Shown here: one piece after another, positions 1,428-32,577 of the stretch
Numbering within the stretch: position 1 is the first letter of the stretch
Layout of the letters: every line of letters begins with the position of its first letter
Sequence record: PQ202980
Length of the DNA stretch: 55,550 nt
Source of the DNA: Escherichia phage CSP1C
Reading direction: 5' to 3' (one strand)
Made by a program: the position numbers and the translations under genes
The notes under the pieces: model-generated
Databases searched by the model: none
What the model saw: the letters and a program-made list of their open reading frames with translations, nothing else
Told to the model about the DNA's origin: nothing

Positions 1428-2924
1428 ATGGGTATTGATGCAACTCACCCGCTATATGACAAGTGGAAGGATGCATGGGTTAAGTGCAACGACTGCTATG
1501 AGGGTGAAGATAAAATTAAGGAAGAAGGTGTTAAATATCTACCACCTTTAGCTTCCATGATTATTGATGGGATGAATAATCCTAATGATTTGGGCTTTCA
1601 ACGTTGGCTCGCTTATCGTCTGCGTGCTAACTTCCCTGACGATTATTCAAGTGCTGTCACAAACAATTTAGGTCTGTTGCACCAGAAGCCTCCTACAATC
1701 CAGCTTCCCCCTGAAATGGAATACATGCGGGAGCTGTGTACTGCGGATGGTGAAGACATTATTGCTCTGCTACGTCGCATCAACGAAATGCAGTTAAAAA
1801 ATGGACGTTTGGGCCTGCTGCTGGACTTGCCAAAAGGTGAGGATGTAAATAACAGACCGTATATTAGCGTTTATGATGCTTTATCCATTATCAACTGGGA
1901 TGATGGTAAAGATGAATTAGGCAATATCAACTTGAACATGGTTGTTCTGGATGAAAGCGGGCCTGTACGTGTCAATCAGTTTGACTGGAAAGAAGAGAAG
2001 CGTTATCGCGTCCTGCAATTAGGCCCGATGGACACAGATGAAGTTGCAGGTGGAGCGGTCTACTCCCAGCATTTATTTATCAACAATACCAATTATGATG
2101 AAGGGCAAATGATTGCTCCTTATTATAAAGGTAATACGCTGGACGAAATACCTTTCCAGTTTGTTAATACGACAGATATTACACCAGCACCGGAAGCGCC
2201 TCCATTGTTGGGGCTAGCTAACATCTGCCTAAGCATGTACCGAAGCGACGCTGATTACCGTCAAAGTCTGCATATGCAGGGTCAGGACACGTTAGTTGTT
2301 GTTGGTGGCTTGGGTGAGAATGGAGATAAAGCCCCTCAGCGCATCGGTCCCGGAGCGGTCATTAACGTTGCTCTTGGGGGTGACGCTAAATATGTAGGCG
2401 TTAGCGGTGATGGTTTGTCCGAGCAACGCCTTGCATTGGCAGCGGATAAGCAGGAAGCTCAGATTAAAGCTGGGCAGATGGTAAACAACACCAAGAGCAC
2501 GCAGGAGTCAGGCGAAGCTATGAAAACGCGTATTGCTGCGCGTACCGCTAGCCTGATTCGAATTGCGTATACTGGTGCGGCAGGTTTGGAAAACTTGCTG
2601 AAGGTCTGCGCTAAATGGATGGGTGCTGATCCAGAGAAAGTTGTGGTTAAGCCTAATCTTGAATTTACCAAGAGCATGTTTAACGGTCAGGACTTTGTTC
2701 AAATTATTACTGCACGCAACCTTAAGGCCCCGATCAGCTTGCAGTCTATTCATGGCTGGCTTGTTGATCAGGGCTTGACCACACTAAGCTTTGAAGAAGA
2801 AATGGCAATTCTTGAAGAAGAGCTTAAGAAGTGGCCTCTGCCCGATGATGCTAAAGCTGATTTAAACGCAGAGCAGCAAGTAAACAAAGATCCTAAGGAA
2901 GACGACGCTTCCGATAAAGAATAG
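1428..2924 (+). CDS. portal protein
   Basis: 498 aa ORF directly after terL, SD GGAGGG upstream; size and position typical of portal. Confidence 0.75.
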   Translation: MGIDATHPLYDKWKDAWVKCNDCYEGEDKIKEEGVKYLPPLASMIIDGMNNPNDLGFQRWLAYRLRANFPDDYSSAVTNNLGLLHQKPPTIQLPPEMEYMRELCTADGEDIIALLRRINEMQLKNGRLGLLLDLPKGEDVNNRPYISVYDALSIINWDDGKDELGNINLNMVVLDESGPVRVNQFDWKEEKRYRVLQLGPMDTDEVAGGAVYSQHLFINNTNYDEGQMIAPYYKGNTLDEIPFQFVNTTDITPAPEAPPLLGLANICLSMYRSDADYRQSLHMQGQDTLVVVGGLGENGDKAPQRIGPGAVINVALGGDAKYVGVSGDGLSEQRLALAADKQEAQIKAGQMVNNTKSTQESGEAMKTRIAARTASLIRIAYTGAAGLENLLKVCAKWMGADPEKVVVKPNLEFTKSMFNGQDFVQIITARNLKAPISLQSIHGWLVDQGLTTLSFEEEMAILEEELKKWPLPDDAKADLNAEQQVNKDPKEDDASDKE

Positions 2925-3019
2925 TTGCAACTTCCAAATTGATTGGTTTATATTAACGAACACGGGGCTGGGACGGCTCAGCCCCAAAAACGTCACACGG
3001 GTGACAACGGAGATAAGAA

Positions 3020-3892
3020 ATGAAAAAGAGTTCTGTAGCTATTAATGTTGGTATGGCTTTAATTAATCCACGCGCTCGCGGTGAAGGTGATGTGGAACTG
3101 GAATACGAATATGCATCTGCGGAAGAGATTCCGGCAGAGTTTGCTGCTCTTTACGCAGAGCAGGGCGGTAAATACGTTCTTGCAAAAGTTAAAGGTGTAG
3201 CCCCTGCTGATAGCGTTCGTCGTCTGGAAAGTGCGTTAGCTAAAGAACGTAACGACCATCGTCAGGTGAAGCAACAGATTAGCGCACTTGGGCGTCCGGT
3301 TGAAGAAGTCCTTGCGGACCTTGATCGTATCCCTCAACTGGAAGCTGCCGCTAACGGTAAAGGTACTCCGGAAGACATCGAAAAGATGGTTAAAGCCCGT
3401 CTTGCTCCACTCGAGCGTCAATTGCAAACTGTAGCAGCTGAACGCGATTCCGTTAAACAGGAAATTGAAGGCTACCGCACTCGCGAAACTAAAGCGAAGA
3501 TTAAAGATGCAGTTATTGCCGCTGCTTCTGGTGCTAAATTGCGTCCATCCGCTATCGAAGACGCTGTAACTTATGCACAGTTGCAGATGACCGTCGACGA
3601 GAACGGCAATGTGGTTACGAAAGATGGGGCTGGTGTAACTCCTTACCTGACTCCGGCTGACTGGCTGAACGAAATCCTTCCGAAACGTCCGCACTGGGTT
3701 GAAGGATCTGCTGGTGGTGGTGCATCTGGTCCGGGCGCTGGTGGCCATCACGGTGAAGATCCATACAGCCACGACGGTTGGAACATCTCTAAGCAGATGA
3801 ACCTCTGGAAAACTAACCAATCTTTAGCTAAACGTTTAGCTGAAAAGAATGGCGTAGACCCGCTGAAGCCTGTACGTCCTGCTAAGAAATAA
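3020..3892 (+). CDS. putative scaffolding / head morphogenesis protein
   Basis: 290 aa, charged and helical with Gly-rich C-terminus, between portal and major capsid gene; SD GGAG. Confidence 0.4.
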   Translation: MKKSSVAINVGMALINPRARGEGDVELEYEYASAEEIPAEFAALYAEQGGKYVLAKVKGVAPADSVRRLESALAKERNDHRQVKQQISALGRPVEEVLADLDRIPQLEAAANGKGTPEDIEKMVKARLAPLERQLQTVAAERDSVKQEIEGYRTRETKAKIKDAVIAAASGAKLRPSAIEDAVTYAQLQMTVDENGNVVTKDGAGVTPYLTPADWLNEILPKRPHWVEGSAGGGASGPGAGGHHGEDPYSHDGWNISKQMNLWKTNQSLAKRLAEKNGVDPLKPVRPAKK

Positions 3893-6278: not shown

Positions 6279-6785
6279 ATGGAGATTCCACTGATAGTTG
6301 AAGATGGTACTGGTGTACCGGACGCCAACAGTTATGTGACCATTGAACAAGTCCGCATGTATGCCGCAATGCGAGGTATTGTACTTCCAAGTGAAGATGA
6401 AGATCTAAAGACAAGGATCTTCGACGCTATGGATTTTGTGGAAGGGTACGGTCAACGGTTTAAGGGTTATAAAATGGACCCACAGCAACCGCTAAATTGG
6501 CCACGCTACGGGGTGTTTGTGGATGGGTTCGAGCTACCCCAAAGCCCCTTACCAAAGGCGCTTATAAACGCTGTTTGCCAGCTTACAGCGGACTCAGCTA
6601 CTGGTGGTCCTCTTAATGGGAAAACTACTGCATATGCAGTCAAAAGAACTAAAGTAGAAGGTCTTGAGATTGAATATGCAACTGGTAGCACAGCACAGTC
6701 AGGTCCAGCAAAAACATATGATAAAGCTATGACGTTTTTATCACCTTTGCTGGGTTATCAAATGGGTAACAGATTAATACGGTGA
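6279..6785 (+). CDS. putative head-tail adaptor / connector protein
   Basis: 168 aa ORF, SD GAGGAAG, position between head and tail genes. Confidence 0.4.
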   Translation: MEIPLIVEDGTGVPDANSYVTIEQVRMYAAMRGIVLPSEDEDLKTRIFDAMDFVEGYGQRFKGYKMDPQQPLNWPRYGVFVDGFELPQSPLPKALINAVCQLTADSATGGPLNGKTTAYAVKRTKVEGLEIEYATGSTAQSGPAKTYDKAMTFLSPLLGYQMGNRLIR

Positions 6786-6788
6786 TTT

Positions 6789-7169
6789 ATGAGCTTTCCT
6801 TATGAGCAGTTAGTTGAAGCTGCAAAGCAAATGATCAACGACGCTGGCGTGAACTGTACCCTTGTGGTCATGGAAAAAGGTGAAGGTCAAGATGAGTGGG
6901 ACGATCCTAGTGTTGAAAAACGTTACCCATTTATCGGAGCTTTTCTTTCTCCGAAGGAAAAAATGATCGGTGGGAGCCTTGTTGCTACTGGCGAATTGAA
7001 AGTCTTAACCTATCCGATGACTCCACCATTGACACGAGATAAAGCAATGACTGCACGCATTGAACGTATGTCTCCTGATGGTGAGTTGGAAGTATGGACA
7101 ATTAACGAGTTCGTTGATACAAGACCTGCTAATGTTTCTGTTCTTTATACTTTCAAGGTGACGCGATAA
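6789..7169 (+). CDS. putative head closure / connector protein
   Basis: 126 aa ORF tightly packed in the connector gene run. Confidence 0.4.
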   Translation: MSFPYEQLVEAAKQMINDAGVNCTLVVMEKGEGQDEWDDPSVEKRYPFIGAFLSPKEKMIGGSLVATGELKVLTYPMTPPLTRDKAMTARIERMSPDGELEVWTINEFVDTRPANVSVLYTFKVTR

Positions 7170-7576
7170 TGGGATTCGGGGCGGATATACGGCGTGCAAG
7201 TCAAAAGGTGCTTGTCCGGACTGGGGAGCAAGCCAAAAAGGTTGTTGTCAAGTTCACGGAGAATGTAATTCAGGATACTCCTGTTAAGACCGGACGTACA
7301 AAAGGCGGTTGGCGTTCATCCATTGGTGCACCATATGCGACGGAAACTATCCGCCTCGATCCTACTGGGGAATTAGCTAAAGCGGAAGCTAGGGTTATCG
7401 TAAGACAGTTGCCAGATGATAAAGACTGGACTTTCTACTTTAGCAACTTAACCCCGTATGCTCCGAAACTTGAATATCTTGGTTGGTCGCAGCAAGCGCC
7501 AAATGGCATGGTGCGTATTAACGTAGCGAAGCTACCAATGTTGATACGCCAAGCTATTGTAGAAGGAAAACTATAA
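7169..7576 (+). CDS. HK97 gp10-like neck / tail completion protein
   Basis: Motif DTPVKTGRTKGGW resembles the HK97 gp10 family signature; start overlaps upstream stop (TAATG). Confidence 0.5.
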   Translation: MGFGADIRRASQKVLVRTGEQAKKVVVKFTENVIQDTPVKTGRTKGGWRSSIGAPYATETIRLDPTGELAKAEARVIVRQLPDDKDWTFYFSNLTPYAPKLEYLGWSQQAPNGMVRINVAKLPMLIRQAIVEGKL

Positions 7577-23210: not shown

Positions 23211-23437
23211 TAGCGATCCTCGATTGCTCTAATTGTGGTTAAATCTAATTCACAGGTTGGAGGGTATCCATAAAGTCCCATTTGTTTTCCTTGTGCATTA
23301 AACCATGTGCCTGACGGATCCTGCCACTGCTTAGGTGTCTTGTGGAGAAATACTACTCTGTTTTCACCGTAATAATTAATTCTTACGCCTGTGTGAGTAT
23401 ATTTACGTTTACCTTTTGGTCTTCTTAAGTTAGCCAT
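23210..23437 (-). CDS. hypothetical small basic protein
   Basis: 75 aa; ATG 23437 overlaps dpdA stop, its own stop overlaps the clamp ATG. Confidence 0.45.
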   Translation of the reverse strand: MANLRRPKGKRKYTHTGVRINYYGENRVVFLHKTPKQWQDPSGTWFNAQGKQMGLYGYPPTCELDLTTIRAIEDR

Positions 23438-24357
23438 CAAAATAACTCCATTACACGATCACGGAATGTGCCGTCATGGGTAGCGTTAATGTTTGCAGCA
23501 ATTACACCATACGCCCATAAGTTGAAGGCAGCACGTGATTCATAGATTGTTGATAAACGTTCGTAAGTGAAACCGTTTTGCTCAAGGTATTTAAGGACAG
23601 CGTCTTGTTCAATTTCAGTTAATGTTGACACATGTTTACCAAAATGATGGCGGTCCGGTGACTTATCTGATACGCGCATTGGTCCCCACGGAGGAGTAAC
23701 CACACTTCCAAACGCTGCCGCTTGAATCCAGGAGGATGAGTCGCAGCTATACCACGGGTAACGCTCCATAATGGTCGTAGACGTAATACCAAATGCATGA
23801 AGCTTAATCTTAGGGCGACCGCTACCATCGCAAATGTATTTGTCCCACATGCGGTCCAGCCAAGTCTTAAGCGTGTCCGTTGAACGCCCTACCATGCCCC
23901 CAATGGTGATATATTCGTAGTTCTTCATGTAGTATTCAAGATAGCGGAAGTCCTCACCAAAGTGAAAGCATGGTAACGGTTTGGCGCCTCGTGCTTCCAT
24001 TTCAAGCTGGTTACGGTAGGTTTGCAGTGGGTCCCCGATACCATCAAGTACCGATGCCATTACCGCACCATCTTCTACCCGCAGAATATCTTTGTTGCGC
24101 TTGATGTACTCGCAGTATTCAACAATATCAATATGAGCACCCAAAGAGTGCGCAGAGAATGCACCGGAGTCGAGAAACACTTTAGCCCCGTCCGCACGCA
24201 TTTGATCAACATACTTCTGACGCCCAACGTAGTGGTATGATTCCAAAATATGGGGCAGATTGCGCGTGATATTTTTCTCATGCTCCGACAGCTTTTCATA
24301 ACGCTGCTGTCCAGGCATATATCCGTTTGTGTAAACTGCTGCCATAAAAACGTTCAT
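23437..24357 (-). CDS. dpdA: DpdA-like tRNA-guanine transglycosylase homologue (7-deazaguanine DNA insertion)
   Basis: 306 aa; TGT-like protein sitting beside folE/queD/queC/queE. Confidence 0.65.
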   Translation of the reverse strand: MNVFMAAVYTNGYMPGQQRYEKLSEHEKNITRNLPHILESYHYVGRQKYVDQMRADGAKVFLDSGAFSAHSLGAHIDIVEYCEYIKRNKDILRVEDGAVMASVLDGIGDPLQTYRNQLEMEARGAKPLPCFHFGEDFRYLEYYMKNYEYITIGGMVGRSTDTLKTWLDRMWDKYICDGSGRPKIKLHAFGITSTTIMERYPWYSCDSSSWIQAAAFGSVVTPPWGPMRVSDKSPDRHHFGKHVSTLTEIEQDAVLKYLEQNGFTYERLSTIYESRAAFNLWAYGVIAANINATHDGTFRDRVMELF

Positions 24358-24360
24358 GAC

Positions 24361-24567
24361 TTACTCCACGTTGTTTAAAGCTACTACTTCAATGAGATAA
24401 TTTTCTTTCTTAAAGCATTGCTCGCTTAAGATTTGTTCAACTCTAACATGTAGATCCGCATGAATTTGTTTTGCGTTACTGCTTTCAGCAATACCGTCCA
24501 TACATAACAGAACTCTGAAAGTACCTTTTTCTACAGCTCGAACGTTGAAAAAGTATTGTCTTACCAT
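24361..24567 (-). CDS. hypothetical small protein
   Basis: 68 aa from ATG 24567 with SD GGAGG; between folE terminator and dpdA. Confidence 0.4.
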   Translation of the reverse strand: MVRQYFFNVRAVEKGTFRVLLCMDGIAESSNAKQIHADLHVRVEQILSEQCFKKENYLIEVVALNNVE

Positions 24568-24638: not shown

Positions 24639-25226
24639 TTATTTACAAGCTTCAAGGAACTCCCGGCGCCATTCTTTACCAATATCGCTACCATGCTCCA
24701 GTTCTGTAGCGCCCCGGAACGCTTTGGTAATAGTAGAGCTACCACATACCTGCTTAACTCCGCGCGACTCCATGCACATATGTTTGGCGTCAATATAAAC
24801 GCATACAGCTTTCGGATTTAGGTGCTCCACAATAGCATCCGCAATCTGGTTAGTAAGTCTTTCCTGTACTTGTAAGCGACGTGAAAAAGCATCCACCACG
24901 CGAGACAGCTTACTAAGACCGACAATGCGACCGTTGGGGACGTAGCCAACCACAGCACGCCCAATAATAGGGGCCATGTGATGCTCGCAATGACTGTATA
25001 CAGGAATATCGCGGACAATGACCATTTCATTCGAACCTTCCGCACCATCTTCAAAGGTTTTAAACAATCCAGCGATATTTACATCGTAACCACCGAACCA
25101 TGTAGCATAAGCTTTAGCTACACGTGACGGAGTTTCTTGTAAGCCTTGACGCAGAGTAGGTGAAGCATGGTCTTCAATATTAAACAACAGGGACATCACA
25201 GCGTTTTCAACAGCTTTAATATTCAT
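24639..25226 (-). CDS. folE: GTP cyclohydrolase I
   Basis: 195 aa with hallmark HCEHHMAP motif and overall FolE-like sequence. Confidence 0.85.
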   Translation of the reverse strand: MNIKAVENAVMSLLFNIEDHASPTLRQGLQETPSRVAKAYATWFGGYDVNIAGLFKTFEDGAEGSNEMVIVRDIPVYSHCEHHMAPIIGRAVVGYVPNGRIVGLSKLSRVVDAFSRRLQVQERLTNQIADAIVEHLNPKAVCVYIDAKHMCMESRGVKQVCGSSTITKAFRGATELEHGSDIGKEWRREFLEACK

Positions 25227-25261
25227 GGTTTGCAGTTTCCTTGTTTGTTAATGTGGTCATA

Positions 25262-25795
25262 TTACAGGCTATAGTTTACGTGACATTTCGAAGTTTCTTC
25301 GATGGTGCATTCTACAAGTTGAACACCATGTTCGTCAAGCAGTTGCGGCCCAATTACGTTAACCATATATGCAGCTAAATTTTCCGCAGTCGGGTTGAAC
25401 GGTAAAGACACCAGCGAGTTGTCAAAGTCCCTTACATCTTGACCCGTAGTTTCGTCACAAAGTTCACAATCAACCTGAAGAGCTTTAATCAAAGGATCTT
25501 CTTCCCAATGCAGGAACTTATGATCCCAATTATCTTCCAACCACTGGCAGAGTGTAGTTTTAACCACACTAAAGTCAATCACGCGCCCGACGCGGTCCAG
25601 CTTAGCGCGCTCTTTTACTTCAACGTTAACAAGACCTCCGCCCATTTCAATTGGTACTTCTTTGACTGTTTCTTTCGGTGCAACCTTAAAGTGAAACTTA
25701 TAGTTGTGACCGTGAAGGTGACGGCACTTGCTTTCATGACCAACAACACGATGCCCAGCGCAAATTTCATGTGAACGAATTACTGTATAGCTCAT
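25262..25795 (-). CDS. queD: 6-carboxy-5,6,7,8-tetrahydropterin synthase
   Basis: N-terminal CAGHRV..HGHNY motif characteristic of the PTPS/QueD family; longer than bacterial QueD. Confidence 0.8.
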   Translation of the reverse strand: MSYTVIRSHEICAGHRVVGHESKCRHLHGHNYKFHFKVAPKETVKEVPIEMGGGLVNVEVKERAKLDRVGRVIDFSVVKTTLCQWLEDNWDHKFLHWEEDPLIKALQVDCELCDETTGQDVRDFDNSLVSLPFNPTAENLAAYMVNVIGPQLLDEHGVQLVECTIEETSKCHVNYSL

Positions 25796-26382
25796 TTTAA
25801 TACCTCTTTAGACTGTTCAATTTCTAATGCACGCTGTGCGGATGCAATAATATCTTTCAAATCTTCTACCAGACTTTTATGACCACGTTCGCCCGGCTGC
25901 AACGCCTTTTTAATCAAATGTTGTAAAGCTGGGTTAGTTGTTTTCCAAGCTTCCAAGACATCATACACGTCCACGATGCATTTTACAACATTGCCGTTTT
26001 CATCTTTACCATAAATAATTTTCTGATATTTATTCATGGGAATTTTAGATGGTTCATATTTGGTAAAAACTGCACCATTAAATGTATTACTTATGCTTAT
26101 TCCAGAAGAAGGTTGATGGTACACTCCGGAGCGAGTGTTTTCGCTGGCTTGTTTGACGTAATCATCCGCAACGATATATCGCCAGGCTATAATATCTTGA
26201 ACTTTATAAGGGCTATATTCATCCATAGCTGAACGCCCTTCTATAGCCCAATCCCATCCATGTAATAAATTCTTAACGTGTGTGCCGTTGCGCAAACGAA
26301 CTTCAAACTTCTCATTACGAAGAAAAATAGGCATTCCTTTACCGTCGTGTTGGTGCCAAATTTTATTAAGATTATCTTTCAT
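25792..26382 (-). CDS. hypothetical protein embedded in 7-deazaguanine cluster
   Basis: About 196 aa; ATG 26382 couples to upstream stop, own stop overlaps queD ATG; no recognisable catalytic motif. Confidence 0.5.
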   Translation of the reverse strand: MKDNLNKIWHQHDGKGMPIFLRNEKFEVRLRNGTHVKNLLHGWDWAIEGRSAMDEYSPYKVQDIIAWRYIVADDYVKQASENTRSGVYHQPSSGISISNTFNGAVFTKYEPSKIPMNKYQKIIYGKDENGNVVKCIVDVYDVLEAWKTTNPALQHLIKKALQPGERGHKSLVEDLKDIIASAQRALEIEQSKEVLK

Positions 26383-26383
26383 T

Positions 26384-26863
26384 TTACGCTCTCGCTGTAC
26401 GTGAATGAACTTCGTAAACAACCCAAAGGATGGCAGATGCTGTGAACTTGCTTAAGCTCATTGCTACCATTGATCCCGGATTAACAATACCTATAATACT
26501 TAAGAACACAATGGAGTCAATCGGTACAGCTACCAAAGAGCTAATAAATACACGTTGATGAAACGGCTTCTTAGTAATCGTGTATACCGCATAGTCCGCA
26601 AACTCACTGAGGGCAAAAGACGCAACTGATGCAACTACAACAGCAGGATCCCCAAATACCCAGCTAAGGATACAACCGACAATCATTGCAGGGATAACAC
26701 CTTTACCTGCGTTACGCTGTGCATAGTCGCGCAACACAAAGATAATACCTACAAAGAAAGCCATCATTGGGACTACGCCAAGCGGCGTGTTAAGCATTGG
26801 AAGGTAGGAAAAGCCCAGGTTTACGAATGTAATTGCAGCCAGATAAGCAACGATAAATTTCAT
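26384..26863 (-). CDS. putative queuosine-precursor transporter (YhhQ/DUF165-like) membrane protein
   Basis: 159 aa polytopic membrane protein from ATG 26863 (SD GGAGAA); location inside the preQ0 gene cluster. Confidence 0.5.
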   Translation of the reverse strand: MKFIVAYLAAITFVNLGFSYLPMLNTPLGVVPMMAFFVGIIFVLRDYAQRNAGKGVIPAMIVGCILSWVFGDPAVVVASVASFALSEFADYAVYTITKKPFHQRVFISSLVAVPIDSIVFLSIIGIVNPGSMVAMSLSKFTASAILWVVYEVHSRTARA

Positions 26864-26983
26864 ACTTTTGTTCTCCAGTTTTAACAGCGTTATTCGCTGG
26901 TTGTTGGGTTTAAAAGCTTTAGTAGTATAGTTGGGTTCCCGCACCCTAAACAATGCGCTAGCGGTGCGGTTTTCGCGGTAAGA

Positions 26984-27691
26984 TCAAGCTTTGCTAATAA
27001 ATTCGCTGTACCCTTTAGCACGCAGTTTGCACGCAGGGCATTCACCGCAACCATAGCCCCAGTCATGCAGAGTGCGACGGACGCCGTTATAACACGTATG
27101 GGACTGCTCAATTACTGTGGTTAAGAAGCCAACCTTATCCGCCAGCTCAAACGTTTCTGCTTTATTTAAACGCATAAGCGGGGTAACAAAATGAATATCT
27201 GTTTCATATCCAACGTTTAACGTAGCTTCAAGAAGATCAACAAACTGCTGGCGACAATCCGGATAACCGCTATAGTCTGTTTCACAAACGCCTGTAACCA
27301 CATATCGGGCTCCAACTTTCTGCGCGTAGGCGTGCGCGGTAGTCAGGAAAAGAGCATTACGGTTTGGCACAAAGCTAGCCGGAAGGTTTTTGTGCTGTTC
27401 GTGATGTTCGTTAACATCACCTTCGTTCCCGATTAAAGCGCTATTACCAATCTGTTTCAAAGCAGGTAATTCAAAGACAACAAATGGGACATCGTGCTCT
27501 TTACAGATCTGTTCAGCGCAAGCCAATTCCACAGTGTGACGTTGACCGTATGCAAAACCAATAGCGTAAACCTTATCATAGTTATTAAGTGCAAGACCTA
27601 AACAGGTCACGCTGTCCTGGCCGCCAGACAGGACGACAACGGCGGAGTTATGATTTTTTACAGGGAATACCAGTTTATCTAATTTATTCAT
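26984..27691 (-). CDS. queC: 7-cyano-7-deazaguanine synthase
   Basis: PP-loop VVVLSGGQDS and C-terminal Zn-binding Cys cluster CYNG..CGECPAC; ATG 27691. Confidence 0.85.
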   Translation of the reverse strand: MNKLDKLVFPVKNHNSAVVVLSGGQDSVTCLGLALNNYDKVYAIGFAYGQRHTVELACAEQICKEHDVPFVVFELPALKQIGNSALIGNEGDVNEHHEQHKNLPASFVPNRNALFLTTAHAYAQKVGARYVVTGVCETDYSGYPDCRQQFVDLLEATLNVGYETDIHFVTPLMRLNKAETFELADKVGFLTTVIEQSHTCYNGVRRTLHDWGYGCGECPACKLRAKGYSEFISKA

Positions 27692-27692
27692 T

Positions 27693-27881
27693 TTAGAAAC
27701 CTTTAAGGCTAATATTAAGATTAACGACCACTTGTTCAACTACATCATCAGATGTCATCTGACGCTTATGAATTTCAAGCTCCGAATGTATGTTCTTGGA
27801 TGCAGCACGACAGATAGCGTCATTCAGCTCGTCTTGTAAACGTTGCATCTTCTGCATAAGAATCACAGTCTCTTCATTCAT
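27693..27881 (-). CDS. hypothetical small protein (paralogue of 27874..28086)
   Basis: 62 aa, SD AAGGTG; shares ELN.AI..A....EL.I pattern with neighbouring gene. Confidence 0.4.
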   Translation of the reverse strand: MNEETVILMQKMQRLQDELNDAICRAASKNIHSELEIHKRQMTSDDVVEQVVVNLNISLKGF

Positions 27882-28086
27882 CTTCTACACCTTTAATATC
27901 ACAAGGATTGATTGTTACAGTTGACATCACAATTGGATGATTGCGTGCCCCGATTGTACTAACGTGATTAATATCTAATTCTACATGCACTCCCTGCATG
28001 GTAGCGTGAGCAATTGCAGAATTAAGTTTTTCTACCAGCTCAGTGATCATTTCCTGATGCTGTTTCGCTTCTTCCAAAGTGATCAT
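27874..28086 (-). CDS. hypothetical small protein (paralogue of 27693..27881)
   Basis: 70 aa, SD GAAGGTG; alternative ATG at 28050. Confidence 0.4.
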   Translation of the reverse strand: MITLEEAKQHQEMITELVEKLNSAIAHATMQGVHVELDINHVSTIGARNHPIVMSTVTINPCDIKGVEDE

Positions 28087-28342
28087 TTCTTTTCACCTTC
28101 ACTAATGTTTGTTTATAATCCATACCTTCAAGGTCAACTTCTGCCATTTCACAAAAGTTATCATCTTCCCAGTATGATGTCCATTTAGTTTGACTGTCCA
28201 TCAACGTTGGCTCATACTCGAATCCGTAAACTGTACCGTCTTGATCCGTAGCCAGCCACCGTACCCATTCAGGGACATCAAGCTTATTGCCAAAGTATTC
28301 AACTTCTTTAGTATGAACAACCTGACTTAATACACGCATCAT
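28040..28342 (-). CDS. hypothetical protein, member of 3-copy paralogous family
   Basis: 100 aa; VPEWVRWLATDQDGTVYGFEYEPT and EVDLEGMDYKQTL shared with ORFs at 49334 and 50172. Confidence 0.45.
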   Translation of the reverse strand: MMRVLSQVVHTKEVEYFGNKLDVPEWVRWLATDQDGTVYGFEYEPTLMDSQTKWTSYWEDDNFCEMAEVDLEGMDYKQTLVKVKRNDHFGRSETASGNDH

Positions 28343-29046
28343 TCCACCCCGATATATTTGTGAACCTGAAGCTGCAACGTGTACCCGTGTTTCATACAGC
28401 TTTTGACAACCGCTTGGATGTTACTGTGGTTAAGGTCTTCATCCTGCTCGTCCATTGGCTGTAAATATATCTTACCCTTGAACCCCTTCGGAGGTCTAGC
28501 GATAAATGGTGTAGCTTGATGATCTAATGCTTGAAGAGGCAAACCATCTTCCACGTTTACACAGCACGCTTTAAGTACATATTTAAATGCATTAGCGCGG
28601 TACAGCACAGAAGGATGAATCTTTGAGGTCTTGGGGCTACATACAATGACAGGTAGCTGGGAAAAGTCCTTCGGTAAAGGCATAGACCCATTAGTTTCAA
28701 TCTGTACCAAATACCCGCGCGATAACAGTTGTTCGACAAAAGGGTTAATTTGCTGACGGAACGGTTCACCACCAGTGATAACCACAAGTGAGGTGCTATT
28801 GCCTGATTCCAGCTTACGGCTTTCGATTAAACGCATGATATCAACAATGTGGTAAAGAGAACGACCTACAGTATAATCAGTATCACAGCCCGGACATTGC
28901 AGGTTACACCCAGCAAGTCGCACAAATACAGCAGGCTGGCCGCAGAATGGACCTTCACCCTGAATGGTAGAGAATACCGAATGCACGTCTAAATACATAT
29001 CGTTTTCTTTAGAACGAGACTCGGGAGCTTGTTGATTAATATTCAT
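28339..29046 (-). CDS. queE: 7-carboxy-7-deazaguanine synthase (radical SAM)
   Basis: Cys motif CNLQCPGCDTDY and VVITGGEP typical of QueE. Confidence 0.85.
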   Translation of the reverse strand: MNINQQAPESRSKENDMYLDVHSVFSTIQGEGPFCGQPAVFVRLAGCNLQCPGCDTDYTVGRSLYHIVDIMRLIESRKLESGNSTSLVVITGGEPFRQQINPFVEQLLSRGYLVQIETNGSMPLPKDFSQLPVIVCSPKTSKIHPSVLYRANAFKYVLKACCVNVEDGLPLQALDHQATPFIARPPKGFKGKIYLQPMDEQDEDLNHSNIQAVVKSCMKHGYTLQLQVHKYIGVE

Positions 29047-29115: not shown

Positions 29116-29919
29116 TTACAAGCCGTTCAGGGCTTCCGGTACTGGTACAGGTACGCGACCAGTCACACCATTAAATTTCTTCCAGCGTGCATACTGGGTT
29201 TTAACGGTATCTTCGTTCAAACCATGGCGACCAGCCAGGTTCAGAACATAAGAGATCGGAGCAGGCTGACCCAGCGTAGCGCTAATCTGGTCCATCAGAG
29301 CCCAGGCACGACCGCAGGAAGTTTCCGGTTGTGGACGACGAACACCGTTCTGTTCCGGCATACGATTAGCTTCTTTTTCTTTCTCGCGGAGCTCTTTAGC
29401 GCGTGCTTTTTCCGCTTCTTTTTCTGCCTGTTTTGCAGCACGGATCTTGTCTTTGAAGCCTTTAATAGTAGCTTCCAGACCATCCACCAGACCCTGGGCA
29501 GAAGTTACAGCACCGGACAGGTCTTCACCTTTAGACTTCTTAACGACAGCTTTCAGCTCTTTCAGAGCTTCTTTAATGGTCTTCAGGTTTGCAGATCCCT
29601 GAGTTTCTGCTTCCGTGATTTGTTCAACAGTGCTTTCGTCGGTGACGGTAGCTAAAGAGTTTTTCAGGATTTCAGCAGCGTTAGCAATCGCATTAAATTT
29701 GTTTTCCGCTTCAGTGCGGATTTCAGCTTGTTTCTTTTCAGCGGCAGCTTTTTTCTCTGCTTCTTTTTTCTCTTTTGCTACGCGTGCAGCTTCAGCGGCA
29801 GCGGCTTTCTTAGCTTCTGTATCATTCACAGTAGCTTCTTTCTTTGCAGGTTTAGCAGATTTTGCAGCGGCAGCAGCGGCAGCAGCGGCAGCGGCTTTTT
29901 TATCTTCAATGTTGCTCAT
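29116..29919 (-). CDS. Ala/Lys-rich low-complexity protein with conserved C-terminal domain (histone-like / DNA-binding candidate)
   Basis: ATG 29919 (track start 29928 is GTG); polyAla run plus KKAAAEK repeats; C-terminal TVKTQYARWKKFNG domain shared with ORF 45820..46434. Confidence 0.5.
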   Translation of the reverse strand: MSNIEDKKAAAAAAAAAAAKSAKPAKKEATVNDTEAKKAAAAEAARVAKEKKEAEKKAAAEKKQAEIRTEAENKFNAIANAAEILKNSLATVTDESTVEQITEAETQGSANLKTIKEALKELKAVVKKSKGEDLSGAVTSAQGLVDGLEATIKGFKDKIRAAKQAEKEAEKARAKELREKEKEANRMPEQNGVRRPQPETSCGRAWALMDQISATLGQPAPISYVLNLAGRHGLNEDTVKTQYARWKKFNGVTGRVPVPVPEALNGL

Positions 29920-30046
29920 TCTCTTCACTCCGAATTGTTATGGGTTCGTTTGTTACCAACGGGGTTAAATGTACCAAAGGATTTTGTGACACGCAACCCC
30001 TTATCCGAACATTTTTAAAAATATTTTTGATCAAGCTTAGAACTTA

Positions 30047-30600: not shown

Positions 30601-32577
30601 TTAGAACGGAACGTAATCCGGATCATCTACTTGTACAGGGTTAACCACATTGTTCACCGTTATGCCTTGCGTATTCTGTGAAACAATATCATCCCAGCTC
30701 ACATCATCATTATAGCTTGGACCTTCTGTTGTTCCATCCTGCCCGTATACTTTAACTTGAATAGCTTCGTCGTCCTGTGGAGCTTCAAACTTACCGAAAC
30801 ACGTACCATCATAATCGTAGTTCAATATCTCAGGCCATTTCTTATTGGTATGAACTTTGATGTATTTCGGTGTTTTAAGCATTGCAGCAACATCAAGAGC
30901 TTCTTCAATAGTTTGTGGTAAAGGAAGATGCGTCCTTTTCTTCCACCATGCAACCGCTTTACGACCTGCCCAGTCACCATGAAGTAGAGCTACCCATTCG
31001 CTGAATATTTTACTACCGCAATAATAAGTCACCTTCATTGTTGGAGGTTTGGAGCTGTCATTGCGTTTAGTGTGCTTCGCATAAGTAACATGCGTAACTT
31101 TAAAGTCTTCAACTACAGGAATGTCCTGCTTAATCAATGCTTCGGTACTTGCTGCCTTTTTAAGTTTGGTTTGGAACTTAAACTCATGACCGCAAAATCC
31201 TTCTTTAACATAATCCGTTCCACGTAGTCTGAATCCCTTCAAATATAATTGTTGAACTTGTTCCTGTGTAACGCTGTCCATAGGAATTGGTGCAAAGCCA
31301 CCGCAATAGCGAGCAGATGCATGATTATACGACCCGCACACATCGCATTCTTTAACCGGAGCAGTACCAGCACCTTTTTCGCCCGGGCGCTTGGGTTTAA
31401 CAGGGTCGTTAATAGGTCCCAAACGGCGCGTATTACCGCTGAAATCCAGTACAAGGCAGTTCTGCTTAGGACTTGCTGCAATAGCTTGCAAGCGACCTTC
31501 CTGCGTGGAAAGATCAAAGCCCTCCGCATATACCGGACGCGTACCGCGACCCAACATCTGAACCCATAGCACCGCCGAGGCAGTTGGGCGAAGCATGATA
31601 ATCAGATCAAGCATTGGATGGTCGAAACCTGTGGTTAAGACGTTGTTGTTTGTCAGCGCTCGAAACTCTCCACGCTTGAACTTTTCAATAATTTCATCAC
31701 GCTCTTTTGCATCAAGCTTTGAGTGAATACATCCGCAACTAATACCCATATCGTTCAGCATATCACACGCATCTTTAGCGTGTTCAATACCAGAACAAAA
31801 TATAAGCCAGCTTTGACGGTCTTCACCACATTCAATGGCTTCCTCAAGTGCGCGGAGTGTTGCGTCGTCGCGGTTTACCGCACTTTGTAGCTCACTCTGG
31901 ATAAACTCACCGCCGCGTTTCCCTACACCATTGAGGTCTAGTTCCATCTTTGTACGCTTTGGCACAACCGGAAGCAAATAGCCTTGCTCCAGGAACCAGT
32001 TAAAGGCTTCAGGGGTAGTTGCATCAAACGTTACTTTATCAAATAAAGCATCATCGTCTTTGTTTTCCTTAACAATTGAACCGTAACCCAGTCGGTAAGG
32101 TGTAGCAGTAAGACCGATAATTTTTAAATACGGGTTAACTTCACGCAATGCTGCAAAGAACTTCTTATACATTGTTGCATCACGCGGACTAATAAGGTGC
32201 GCTTCATCCACAAAGATTAGATCAACCTTGCCGAACTTTTTAGGATGCTTAGCAACAGATGCAATCCCCGCAAATGTGATAAGATTATAGACTTCTTTAC
32301 GCTTCAAACCTGCGCTGTAAATACCTGCTGGCGCTTCAGGCCAGACTTTCATTAATTTATCATAGTTTTGTGCAATTAACTCTTTGACGTGAGTTAACAT
32401 CATTACGCGCTGGTTTGGATACCATTTATAAAGCAGATCGAGGAACCCCGCGATAACGAGCGATTTTCCTGTCCCTGTTGGTAACAGGATCAAAGGGTTC
32501 CCCGCGTTACCCTTTTCAGCATCAAAATAGCGGAATACGCTATAAACTGCTTCCTGTTGATAATCGCGGAGCTGCAT
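30601..32577 (-). CDS. SF2 DEAH-type DNA helicase
   Basis: Walker A PTGTGKSL and DEAH box FVDEAHL; ATG 32577 (track start is TTG); C-terminal Cys-rich region. Confidence 0.8.
   Translation of the reverse strand: MQLRDYQQEAVYSVFRYFDAEKGNAGNPLILLPTGTGKSLVIAGFLDLLYKWYPNQRVMMLTHVKELIAQNYDKLMKVWPEAPAGIYSAGLKRKEVYNLITFAGIASVAKHPKKFGKVDLIFVDEAHLISPRDATMYKKFFAALREVNPYLKIIGLTATPYRLGYGSIVKENKDDDALFDKVTFDATTPEAFNWFLEQGYLLPVVPKRTKMELDLNGVGKRGGEFIQSELQSAVNRDDATLRALEEAIECGEDRQSWLIFCSGIEHAKDACDMLNDMGISCGCIHSKLDAKERDEIIEKFKRGEFRALTNNNVLTTGFDHPMLDLIIMLRPTASAVLWVQMLGRGTRPVYAEGFDLSTQEGRLQAIAASPKQNCLVLDFSGNTRRLGPINDPVKPKRPGEKGAGTAPVKECDVCGSYNHASARYCGGFAPIPMDSVTQEQVQQLYLKGFRLRGTDYVKEGFCGHEFKFQTKLKKAASTEALIKQDIPVVEDFKVTHVTYAKHTKRNDSSKPPTMKVTYYCGSKIFSEWVALLHGDWAGRKAVAWWKKRTHLPLPQTIEEALDVAAMLKTPKYIKVHTNKKWPEILNYDYDGTCFGKFEAPQDDEAIQVKVYGQDGTTEGPSYNDDVSWDDIVSQNTQGITVNNVVNPVQVDDPDYVPF

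Follow-up and report, generated by a model that had tools for sequence, protein, structure and literature searches.

The gene and its operon

The window analysed here is the whole 55,550-nt stretch of Escherichia phage CSP1C (PQ202980). The open reading frame at 25792–26382, on the minus strand like all of the genes around it, is 100% identical to CSP1_085 of Cronobacter phage CSP1 (KY982929), a CDS labelled "hypothetical protein", and we use that name for it. The region from 25200 to 27000 has 100% identity to the same Cronobacter phage and 84–96% identity to Seuratvirus-type coliphages (Seurat, slur01, Greed and the BASEL phages); the phage is of Seuratvirus type. From the ORF list, the homologues and the annotation, CSP1_085 is a complete CDS of 196 codons that runs from the ATG at 26382–26380 to the TGA at 25794–25792 (the stop codon is included in the coordinates), and its 196-aa product belongs to phrog_23361.

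The gene is part of a 7-deazaguanine operon. In transcription order queE comes first (28339–29046), followed by three small ORFs, queC (26984–27691; PF06508 match), the gene for a yhhQ-type preQ0 transporter (26384–26863, with the start taken from the CSP1_084 annotation), CSP1_085, queD (25262–25795; PF01242 match with E 1.8e-22), folE (24639–25226; PF01227 match), one small ORF and dpdA (23437–24357), which we recognized from 100%-identical annotated homologues. Genes for a sliding clamp and a family-B DNA polymerase come next. QueE matches Radical_SAM and YhhQ matches Vut_1/TIGR00697, both under the curated cut-offs.

Both junctions of CSP1_085 are tight. At the upstream junction (26380–26393), a Shine-Dalgarno-like GAGAG at 26393–26389 lies within the 3' end of yhhQ, 6 nt 5' of the CSP1_085 ATG, and the yhhQ stop TAA (26386–26384) is separated from that ATG by one base. 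At the downstream junction (25792–25795), the queD ATG (25795–25793) overlaps the CSP1_085 TGA (25794–25792) in the sequence ATGA. We found no minus-strand terminator-like sites from yhhQ to queD (25795 to 26863 scanned), and a promoter and terminator scan within the operon gave nothing over background. This is the arrangement that we look for in translational coupling: a gap of at most 1 nt or an overlap on both sides, a single strand and no terminator. Because of the 1-nt gap, the ATGA overlap and the lack of an internal terminator, CSP1_085 is very likely co-transcribed and translationally coupled with yhhQ and queD. The initial annotation had described the same two junctions, which the sequence bears out as TAA-A-ATG and ATGA, and had called co-expression with the pathway almost certain; we would say very likely. 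In CAjan, L006 and L007, an extra ORF of 89–107 aa sits between the CSP1_085 orthologue and queD.

The ORF list extends the frame of CSP1_085 to a TTG at 26421. In an alignment of 21 family members every homologue begins with MKDNL at the ATG, so we take the ATG as the real start. There are about 60 full-length homologues, on phage contigs of ~60 kb. Comparing CSP1 with CAjan, the C-terminal domain has 25 synonymous and 9 nonsynonymous codon differences (66 codons), and comparing CSP1 with L005, the N-terminal domain has 7 synonymous and 0 nonsynonymous differences (36 codons). CSP1_085 is a real gene, expressed-looking and under purifying selection, and the conservation and codon differences rule out a spurious ORF. 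One natural Seuratvirus contig (ERR10744237) has a 1-nt deletion that splits the gene into a 59-aa N-terminal fragment and a 125-aa ORF with the linker and the C-terminal domain. This split and the ORF insertion before queD fit a modular, non-essential gene.

A protein in three parts

From the alignment of the 21 family members we divided CSP1_085 into three parts. The N-terminal domain (N-domain, aa 1–75; 26158–26382, minus strand) has the pattern MKDNLNKIWHxHDGKGMP...FEV...W.W...DV.AWRYI and is predicted by AlphaFold to be a small beta-rich fold with a pLDDT of about 70–80. The linker that follows (aa 76–115; 26038–26157, minus strand) is predicted to be disordered, with a pLDDT below 50; among orthologues it occurs in at least three unrelated sequence types and has in-frame indels. 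The conserved C-terminal domain (C-domain, aa 116–196; 25795–26037, minus strand), also delimited from alignments, has the pattern NKY..I...VDVYDVL.AW.VTNPALQHLIKKALQPG.RGHK....DL.DI..SA.RA.ELE. It is modelled with a pLDDT of 84–94 as a beta-hairpin (120–126, 132–138) followed by helices at 139–145, 151–161 and 171–195. The usable AF2 model is the second one, made from a mixed alignment of 76 sequences, as the first, from the shallow 21-sequence alignment, had a pLDDT of 56 and was too poor to use.

Among 47 diverse C-domains, ten residues are invariant (Y119, D138, Y140, H155, K158, K159, G164, R166, K169 and S181), and those conserved in at least 90% include K118, P151, G167, H168, D174, R184 and A185. 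The net charge of the domain is about +1, and on this ground we rejected the idea that it is a DNA-binding domain.

Searches with CSP1_085 against Pfam, NCBIfam and PDB sequences, as a single sequence and as a profile, gave nothing significant. Matches to calpain, GroES and NYN were at chance level (the NYN match in Pfam was sub-threshold, with E 0.074). PDB sequence and fold searches found no solved structure resembling the model. The best family match is phrog_23361 itself (E 4.2e-100), where residues 1–196 align to profile positions 1–181 of 181. Five other families (phrog_2452, 35158, 13223, 18443 and 17613) match CSP1_085 over the C-domain only, at their C-terminal ends. All six are without known function, so the PHROG families give no mechanism; the sole label is "ATPase" for phrog_17613, which Pfam did not bear out in the one member tested, Pq0 gp39.

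We also compared CSP1_085 with the enzyme families of the pathway in Pfam and NCBIfam and found no significant match, in agreement with the initial annotation, which could not assign the ORF to a queuosine or archaeosine enzyme. It had proposed structure prediction and a fold search as a way to a function; these gave no likeness to pathway enzymes, and, as a weak hint, returned three matches to gp1.7-type models in BFVD. Taken together, an N-domain specific to the lineage is joined by a disordered linker to a C-domain of ~75 aa, the protein's conserved functional unit.

Distribution of the two domains

The two domains have very different distributions. When 1.84 billion cluster representatives were searched with phmmer, only one (P0049) matched CSP1_085 over its full length, and P0198, a 59-aa fragment, matched the N-domain. 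The remaining top-150 matches cover only residues ~116 or 135 to 190, at 50–80% identity. At E<=1e-3 the C-domain was found in 2,153 protein clusters (clustered at 50% identity). In a local HMM search of 97 loci, the N-domain was confined to Seuratviruses. A 78-aa N-domain query alone gave one candidate, a count that reflects a word-index limit, since ~60 full-length homologues exist.

In 254 C-domain matches among the retrieved proteins, the domain is placed at the C-terminus in 200, at the N-terminus in 24, internally in 6, and stands alone in 24, as proteins of 68–90 aa. In our Pfam and PHROG scans, the regions fused to it have almost no Pfam domains, and no PHROG recurs among them; one Aeromonas phage protein joins it to a BRCT domain. 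With tblastn against 50,697 phage records, 716 (about 1.4%) have a match to CSP1_085, and only 34 have a match with at least 80% coverage. All 34 are Seuratvirus-type, and the gene is kept in the operon in these. The bulk of the 716 records are Jerseyvirus-like Salmonella phages, T1-like coliphages, and phages of Vibrio, Aeromonas, Edwardsiella, Klebsiella and Acinetobacter.

We then looked at the neighbours of the C-domain genes (103 genes at 77 loci without deazaguanine genes nearby). The Pfam families matched are Dam, NinB, RusA, NinG, DnaB, 5'-3' exonuclease, MazG and ThyX, as well as PolA, RdgC, SSB, SNF2, clamp, UvsX and YqaJ, with each family matched by one or two of the 103 genes. C-domain neighbourhoods are typically replication, recombination and nin-type early modules.

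To see how the C-domain relates to deazaguanine clusters, we used 80 viral-contig loci retrieved with a C-domain profile. In 77 of them there is no dpdA, folE, queC, queD, queE or yhhQ within 10 kb, and the other three are the Seuratvirus loci. The C-domain is a mobile, promiscuous phage module that is widespread in phages without the deazaguanine pathway. From the side of the pathway, DpdA is present in 236 phage records, compared with 716 for the C-domain. We examined four other genera whose DpdA is 67–72% identical, represented by Iggyvirus (Iggy), Nipunavirus DoCa3, Vidquintavirus Vid5 and Craquatrovirus PSTCR4. Their deazaguanine clusters are compact and have no ORF of ~190 aa, and an HMM search found neither the N-domain nor the C-domain within 20 kb of dpdA in any of the four (41 kb searched, best E 0.03). 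The co-occurrence across dpdA-encoding phages that the initial annotation had proposed as a check is thus missing from 77 of the 80 loci and from all four genera.

There is one exception outside the Seuratviruses. A C-domain protein of Nonagvirus lies inside the deazaguanine cluster in 18 records, phage 9g included. Counting these and the 34 Seuratvirus records, the C-domain is in the cluster in about 52 of the 716 records that bear the domain and about 52 of the 236 records with dpdA, and all of these come from two sister genera. That Nonagviruses independently keep such a protein in their cluster could point to a functional link as well as to common ancestry. The initial annotation had named a lack of conservation with deazaguanine clusters in other phages as an outcome that would speak against its proposal, and this is largely what we see, with Nonagvirus as the part that does not follow.

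The CAjan orthologue and the ΔyhhQ strain

The orthologue of CSP1_085 in phage CAjan is gp40, which is 55% identical to it along the full length. In Kot et al. (2020), gp40 is one of six unassigned genes in the 12-gene CAjan cluster (PMC7544227), and neither their paper nor that of Hutinet et al. (2019) assigns a role to a gene of the CSP1_085 type (PMC7544227, PMC6884629). Hutinet et al. found by LC-MS/MS that CAjan DNA carries dPreQ0 only (PMC6884629), with dADG, dG+, dPreQ1 and dQ each below 6 per 10^6 nt (PMC6884629; PMC7544227). With dPreQ0 as the only modification, there is no product left for a tailoring enzyme.

A CAjan mutant bears on the question further. Table 1 of Kot et al. describes CAjan "ΔyhhQ" as a 550 bp deletion at position 31,850 (PMC7544227). 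This position falls in gp40 (31513–32082), outside yhhQ (32084–32563). One of the matches in our homology search, P0061, is an in-frame fusion of YhhQ residues 1–54 to gp40 residues 78–189, and it is encoded on the Logan assemblies of SRR14312197-200, which we take to be the CAjan ΔyhhQ runs. The contigs of these runs have 100% identity to CAjan flanking a 550-bp deletion at about 31,851–32,400. Because the Table 1 coordinate, the P0061 fusion and the deletion in the assemblies agree, we infer that the published ΔyhhQ phage has also lost the gp40 start codon and N-domain (aa 1–77). The mutant resists restriction digestion, and its modified G positions are at 36.0% versus 34.9% for the wild type (PMC7544227). 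Native gp40 and its N-domain would thus be dispensable for dPreQ0 modification and for laboratory growth. This is limited to the N-domain and the native protein because the fusion keeps the linker and the C-domain. The second lesion and the YhhQ::gp40 fusion, read here from coordinates and assemblies, matter to anyone who interprets or reuses the strain.

Possible relation to T7 gp1.7

The order of motifs in the C-domain resembles that of DUF3310, the domain conserved at the C-terminus of the T7 gp1.7 nucleotide kinase. We looked for this relation at the level of sequence and of structure. The DUF3310 model PF11753 ("SaV-like"; gathering score 24 bits) did not match CSP1_085 or any of 139 family members, while T7 gp1.7, our positive control, scored 81.5 bits. 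With hhalign, neither T7 gp1.7 by itself nor the near-invariant T7 family gave a positive result. The loci examined here contained no diverse DUF3310 members. An alignment of 11 diverse DUF3310 sequences, which took in seven members fetched from phage records, gave a weak hhalign signal (P = 0.007, probability 5.5%) that pairs RGHK...DL with GKK...eDL and, at low stringency, KY with HY.

A Foldseek search of BFVD returned members of the family itself first, and then three gp1.7-type "nucleotide kinase" models: Klebsiella phage P560 (E 3.9e-3, prob 0.99), ctqEG8 (E 1.5e-2, prob 0.98) and ctGkF2 (E 0.16, prob 0.75). Our fold and structure searches found no solved DUF3310 structure for comparison. 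We do not file the C-domain as DUF3310 because the sequence-level tests are negative or weak, even with diverse members included. A gp1.7/DUF3310-type fold, suggested weakly by the predicted models, is a lead and not a classification.

What CSP1_085 may do

The reading that we lean towards, by a small measure, is that CSP1_085 is a generic modular accessory protein and not an enzyme of the pathway. It would be neither a biosynthetic nor a tailoring enzyme of 7-deazaguanine, and it would sit in the operon because the cluster lies in a replication module and the junction tolerates accessory ORFs. Points against this are the tight operon coupling, the retention of the gene in 34 of 34 Seuratvirus-type records and the C-domain protein inside the Nonagvirus cluster. 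A tailoring role is very unlikely because CAjan DNA has only dPreQ0 and the ΔyhhQ phage, without the gp40 N-domain, is modified like the wild type. That CSP1_085 is a new enzyme altering preQ0 or dPreQ0 chemically, in line with the candidate tailoring function of the initial annotation, we consider hardly credible: only the genomic position and the lack of an annotation speak for it, while there is no match to an enzyme family and the distribution is unrelated to the pathway. The same proposal in its wider form, as a candidate tailoring or accessory function, sits badly with an N-domain found only in Seuratviruses, a C-domain mostly found outside pathway phages and the dPreQ0-only DNA of CAjan.

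A non-tailoring factor that helps the pathway, for instance in guanine-nucleotide salvage for the GTP used by FolE or as a helper of DpdA or YhhQ, is improbable. The translational coupling, the position conserved in Seuratviruses, the 18 Nonagvirus records with a C-domain protein between queE and gat-queC and the fold hint towards a dGMP/dTMP kinase all argue for it. Against these stand the lack of either domain in the clusters of four further genera whose DpdA is a close relative, the many C-domain phages that do not have the pathway, an N-domain that appears dispensable for modification in CAjan, a frameshift that splits the gene in at least one natural contig and the extra ORF that can insert before queD. 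Any such role, slight as its chances are, would be possible only through the C-domain. A more specific form is a long shot: the C-domain may be a minimal gp1.7-type nucleotide kinase, unrecognised by Pfam, that Seuratviruses and Nonagviruses recruited for recycling of guanine or (d)GMP. The guanine or (d)GMP would come from the guanine-preQ0 swap by DpdA or from breakdown of host DNA, and the guanine nucleotides would be returned to GTP, the substrate of FolE.

Returning to the generic modular protein that we prefer, we hold its most likely mechanism with reserve. By analogy, the C-domain may be a small, probably oligomeric, gp1.7/DUF3310-type unit that binds or acts on nucleotides or phosphoryl groups, which we consider possible and would not yet expect. 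Its site would be made up of the invariant residues Y, D, Y, H, KK, G-R-G-H-K and S, and the variable N-domain and linker would fit it to a partner specific to the lineage. As a rival to the preferred reading, and held with the same reserve, CSP1_085 may be an adaptor for host takeover or counter-defence, in which the C-domain binds a conserved component of the host or replisome and the N-terminal regions are interchangeable effectors or specificity modules. This is suggested by a C-domain that is 70–80% identical across phages of Salmonella, Escherichia, Vibrio, Aeromonas and Pseudomonas, by partner regions that are unrelated and mostly without a Pfam match, by the predicted disordered linker and by the location of C-domain genes in early or replication modules. 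DUF3310 proteins such as the lactococcal SaV are toxic early proteins, which would also suit an adaptor. So would the sensing of T7 gp1.7, a possible relative, by the Avs5 defence system (PMC11897194). The stand-alone versions speak against an adaptor because a domain that exists as a protein of 68 aa has a function of its own. With thirteen polar residues that are invariant or nearly so in ~75 aa, the domain resembles a ligand or catalytic site more than a plain docking surface, and its net charge is not typical of a DNA-binding domain. The density of these residues and the 68-aa versions argue for a unit that binds a ligand or catalyses a reaction by itself; the variable partners on disordered linkers equally fit an adaptor docking on a conserved host or replisome target.

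What is new here is the C-domain family and the reinterpreted CAjan ΔyhhQ strain; there is nothing new in deazaguanine chemistry. One of the six unassigned genes in the 12-gene CAjan-type cluster comes off the list of plausible pathway enzymes, and an abundant, strongly conserved phage domain of ~75 aa, without a Pfam model or a solved structure, has been delineated. If the C-domain proves to be a gp1.7-like kinase or a host-targeting module, several hundred "hypothetical proteins" of replication modules would gain an annotation. If the recycling reading is true, CSP1_085 would be a real accessory of the pathway, and the family would be a novel class of phage nucleotide kinases of very small size.

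Comparison with known systems

CSP1_085 shares an operon, and likely its expression, with the known phage 7-deazaguanine proteins, but resembles none of them in sequence or fold (FolE, QueD, QueE, QueC/Gat-QueC, QueF-L, DpdA1-4, DpdL/M/N and YhhQ). Its closest counterpart in another deazaguanine cluster is the 252-aa Nonagvirus protein (JenP2 AKA60989.1 and the 9g homologue; phrog_18443), which has the same C-domain (49% identity over 82 aa, E 6e-18) and is also in the cluster, between queE and gat-queC. It differs from CSP1_085 in its unrelated 165-aa N-terminal region and in its position in the operon.

The other system to compare is T7 gp1.7, which phosphorylates dGMP and dTMP (cited in PMC11897194). 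As in CSP1_085, a variable N-terminal part is followed by a nearly invariant C-terminal region, of 70 aa in gp1.7. DUF3310 and the C-domain are both small C-terminal helical domains of about 60–75 aa, and both are encoded in early or DNA-metabolism regions of phages. They have a common order of motifs: [HK]Y, an acidic helix, a basic K-x-x-[LR]-x-G-x-K loop, and DL-x-[KD] at the start of the last helix. They differ in the motif before the KY/KK dipeptide, where the C-domain has His in place of the DUF3310 Asn (QH versus GN), and in the extra beta-hairpin of the C-domain.

Deletion and possible frameshift alleles of the CSP1_085 homologue

The 'ΔyhhQ' mutant of phage CAjan carries a deletion of 550 bp (Kot et al. 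2020), which we found at about 31,851-32,400 of NC_028776 in four retrieved loci (L098-L101, from SRR14312197-200); the orthologous positions in the window are about 26150-26700. The CAjan orthologue of CSP1_085, gp40, is hit by this deletion as well and loses aa 1-77 together with its start codon. The result is an in-frame fusion of 166 aa, YhhQ(1-54)::gp40(78-189), which is present among the retrieved homologues as P0061.

A second altered version was seen in ERR10744237, on a 57.8-kb Seuratvirus contig (L102), where the homologue at 2501-3045 is broken by a 1-nt deletion within a run of CCCAAACC. This leaves two ORFs, one a 59-aa fragment of the N-domain and the other a 125-aa ORF with the linker and the C-domain. 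The split version occurs on two contigs and reflects either a frameshift that exists in nature or a mistake in the assembly.

Neighboring genes in and beside the deazaguanine cluster

The junction between CSP1_085 and queD (window 25792-25795) is an insertion hot spot. An additional ORF of 89-107 aa lies here in CAjan and in two other homologue loci (L006 and L007); the CAjan one, gp39 (L085:3194-3517), had no Pfam match. CSP1 and slur01 have no extra ORF at this point. The product of queD itself (25262-25795, minus strand) is 177 aa, and its match to Pfam PTPS is split in two, with the better part spanning aa 57-175.

Upstream of queE is a gene (29116-29928, minus strand) annotated as a 'transcriptional activator FtrA domain-containing protein'. 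Its product is rich in Ala, Lys and Glu, with 11 alanines in a run. Positions 29121-29068 contain a promoter-like site together with a terminator-like hairpin.

Four small ORFs of the cluster, all on the minus strand and partially overlapping, are annotated in CSP1 as hypothetical proteins (24361-24567, 27693-27881, 27874-28086 and 28040-28342). Small ORFs also occupy the corresponding places in CAjan (gp36, gp43 and gp44). Because gp44 is only 70 aa, its annotation as a 'radical SAM domain-containing protein' looks doubtful.

The C-domain in other proteins

Aeromonas phage AhMtk13b encodes a 469-aa 'putative DNA ligase' (L086:2923-4329), in which the C-domain lies close to the N-terminal end and a BRCT domain spans aa 394-453. 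No ligase adenylation domain was matched in Pfam, so this label is probably wrong.

Within Nonagvirus deazaguanine clusters, the gene for a 252-aa protein (phrog_18443, in 18 phage records) sits between queE and gat-queC, at L002:4491-5249 in JenP2 and 6627-7385 in 9g. This protein shares its C-terminal domain with CSP1_085, whereas its 165-aa N-terminal region is unrelated.
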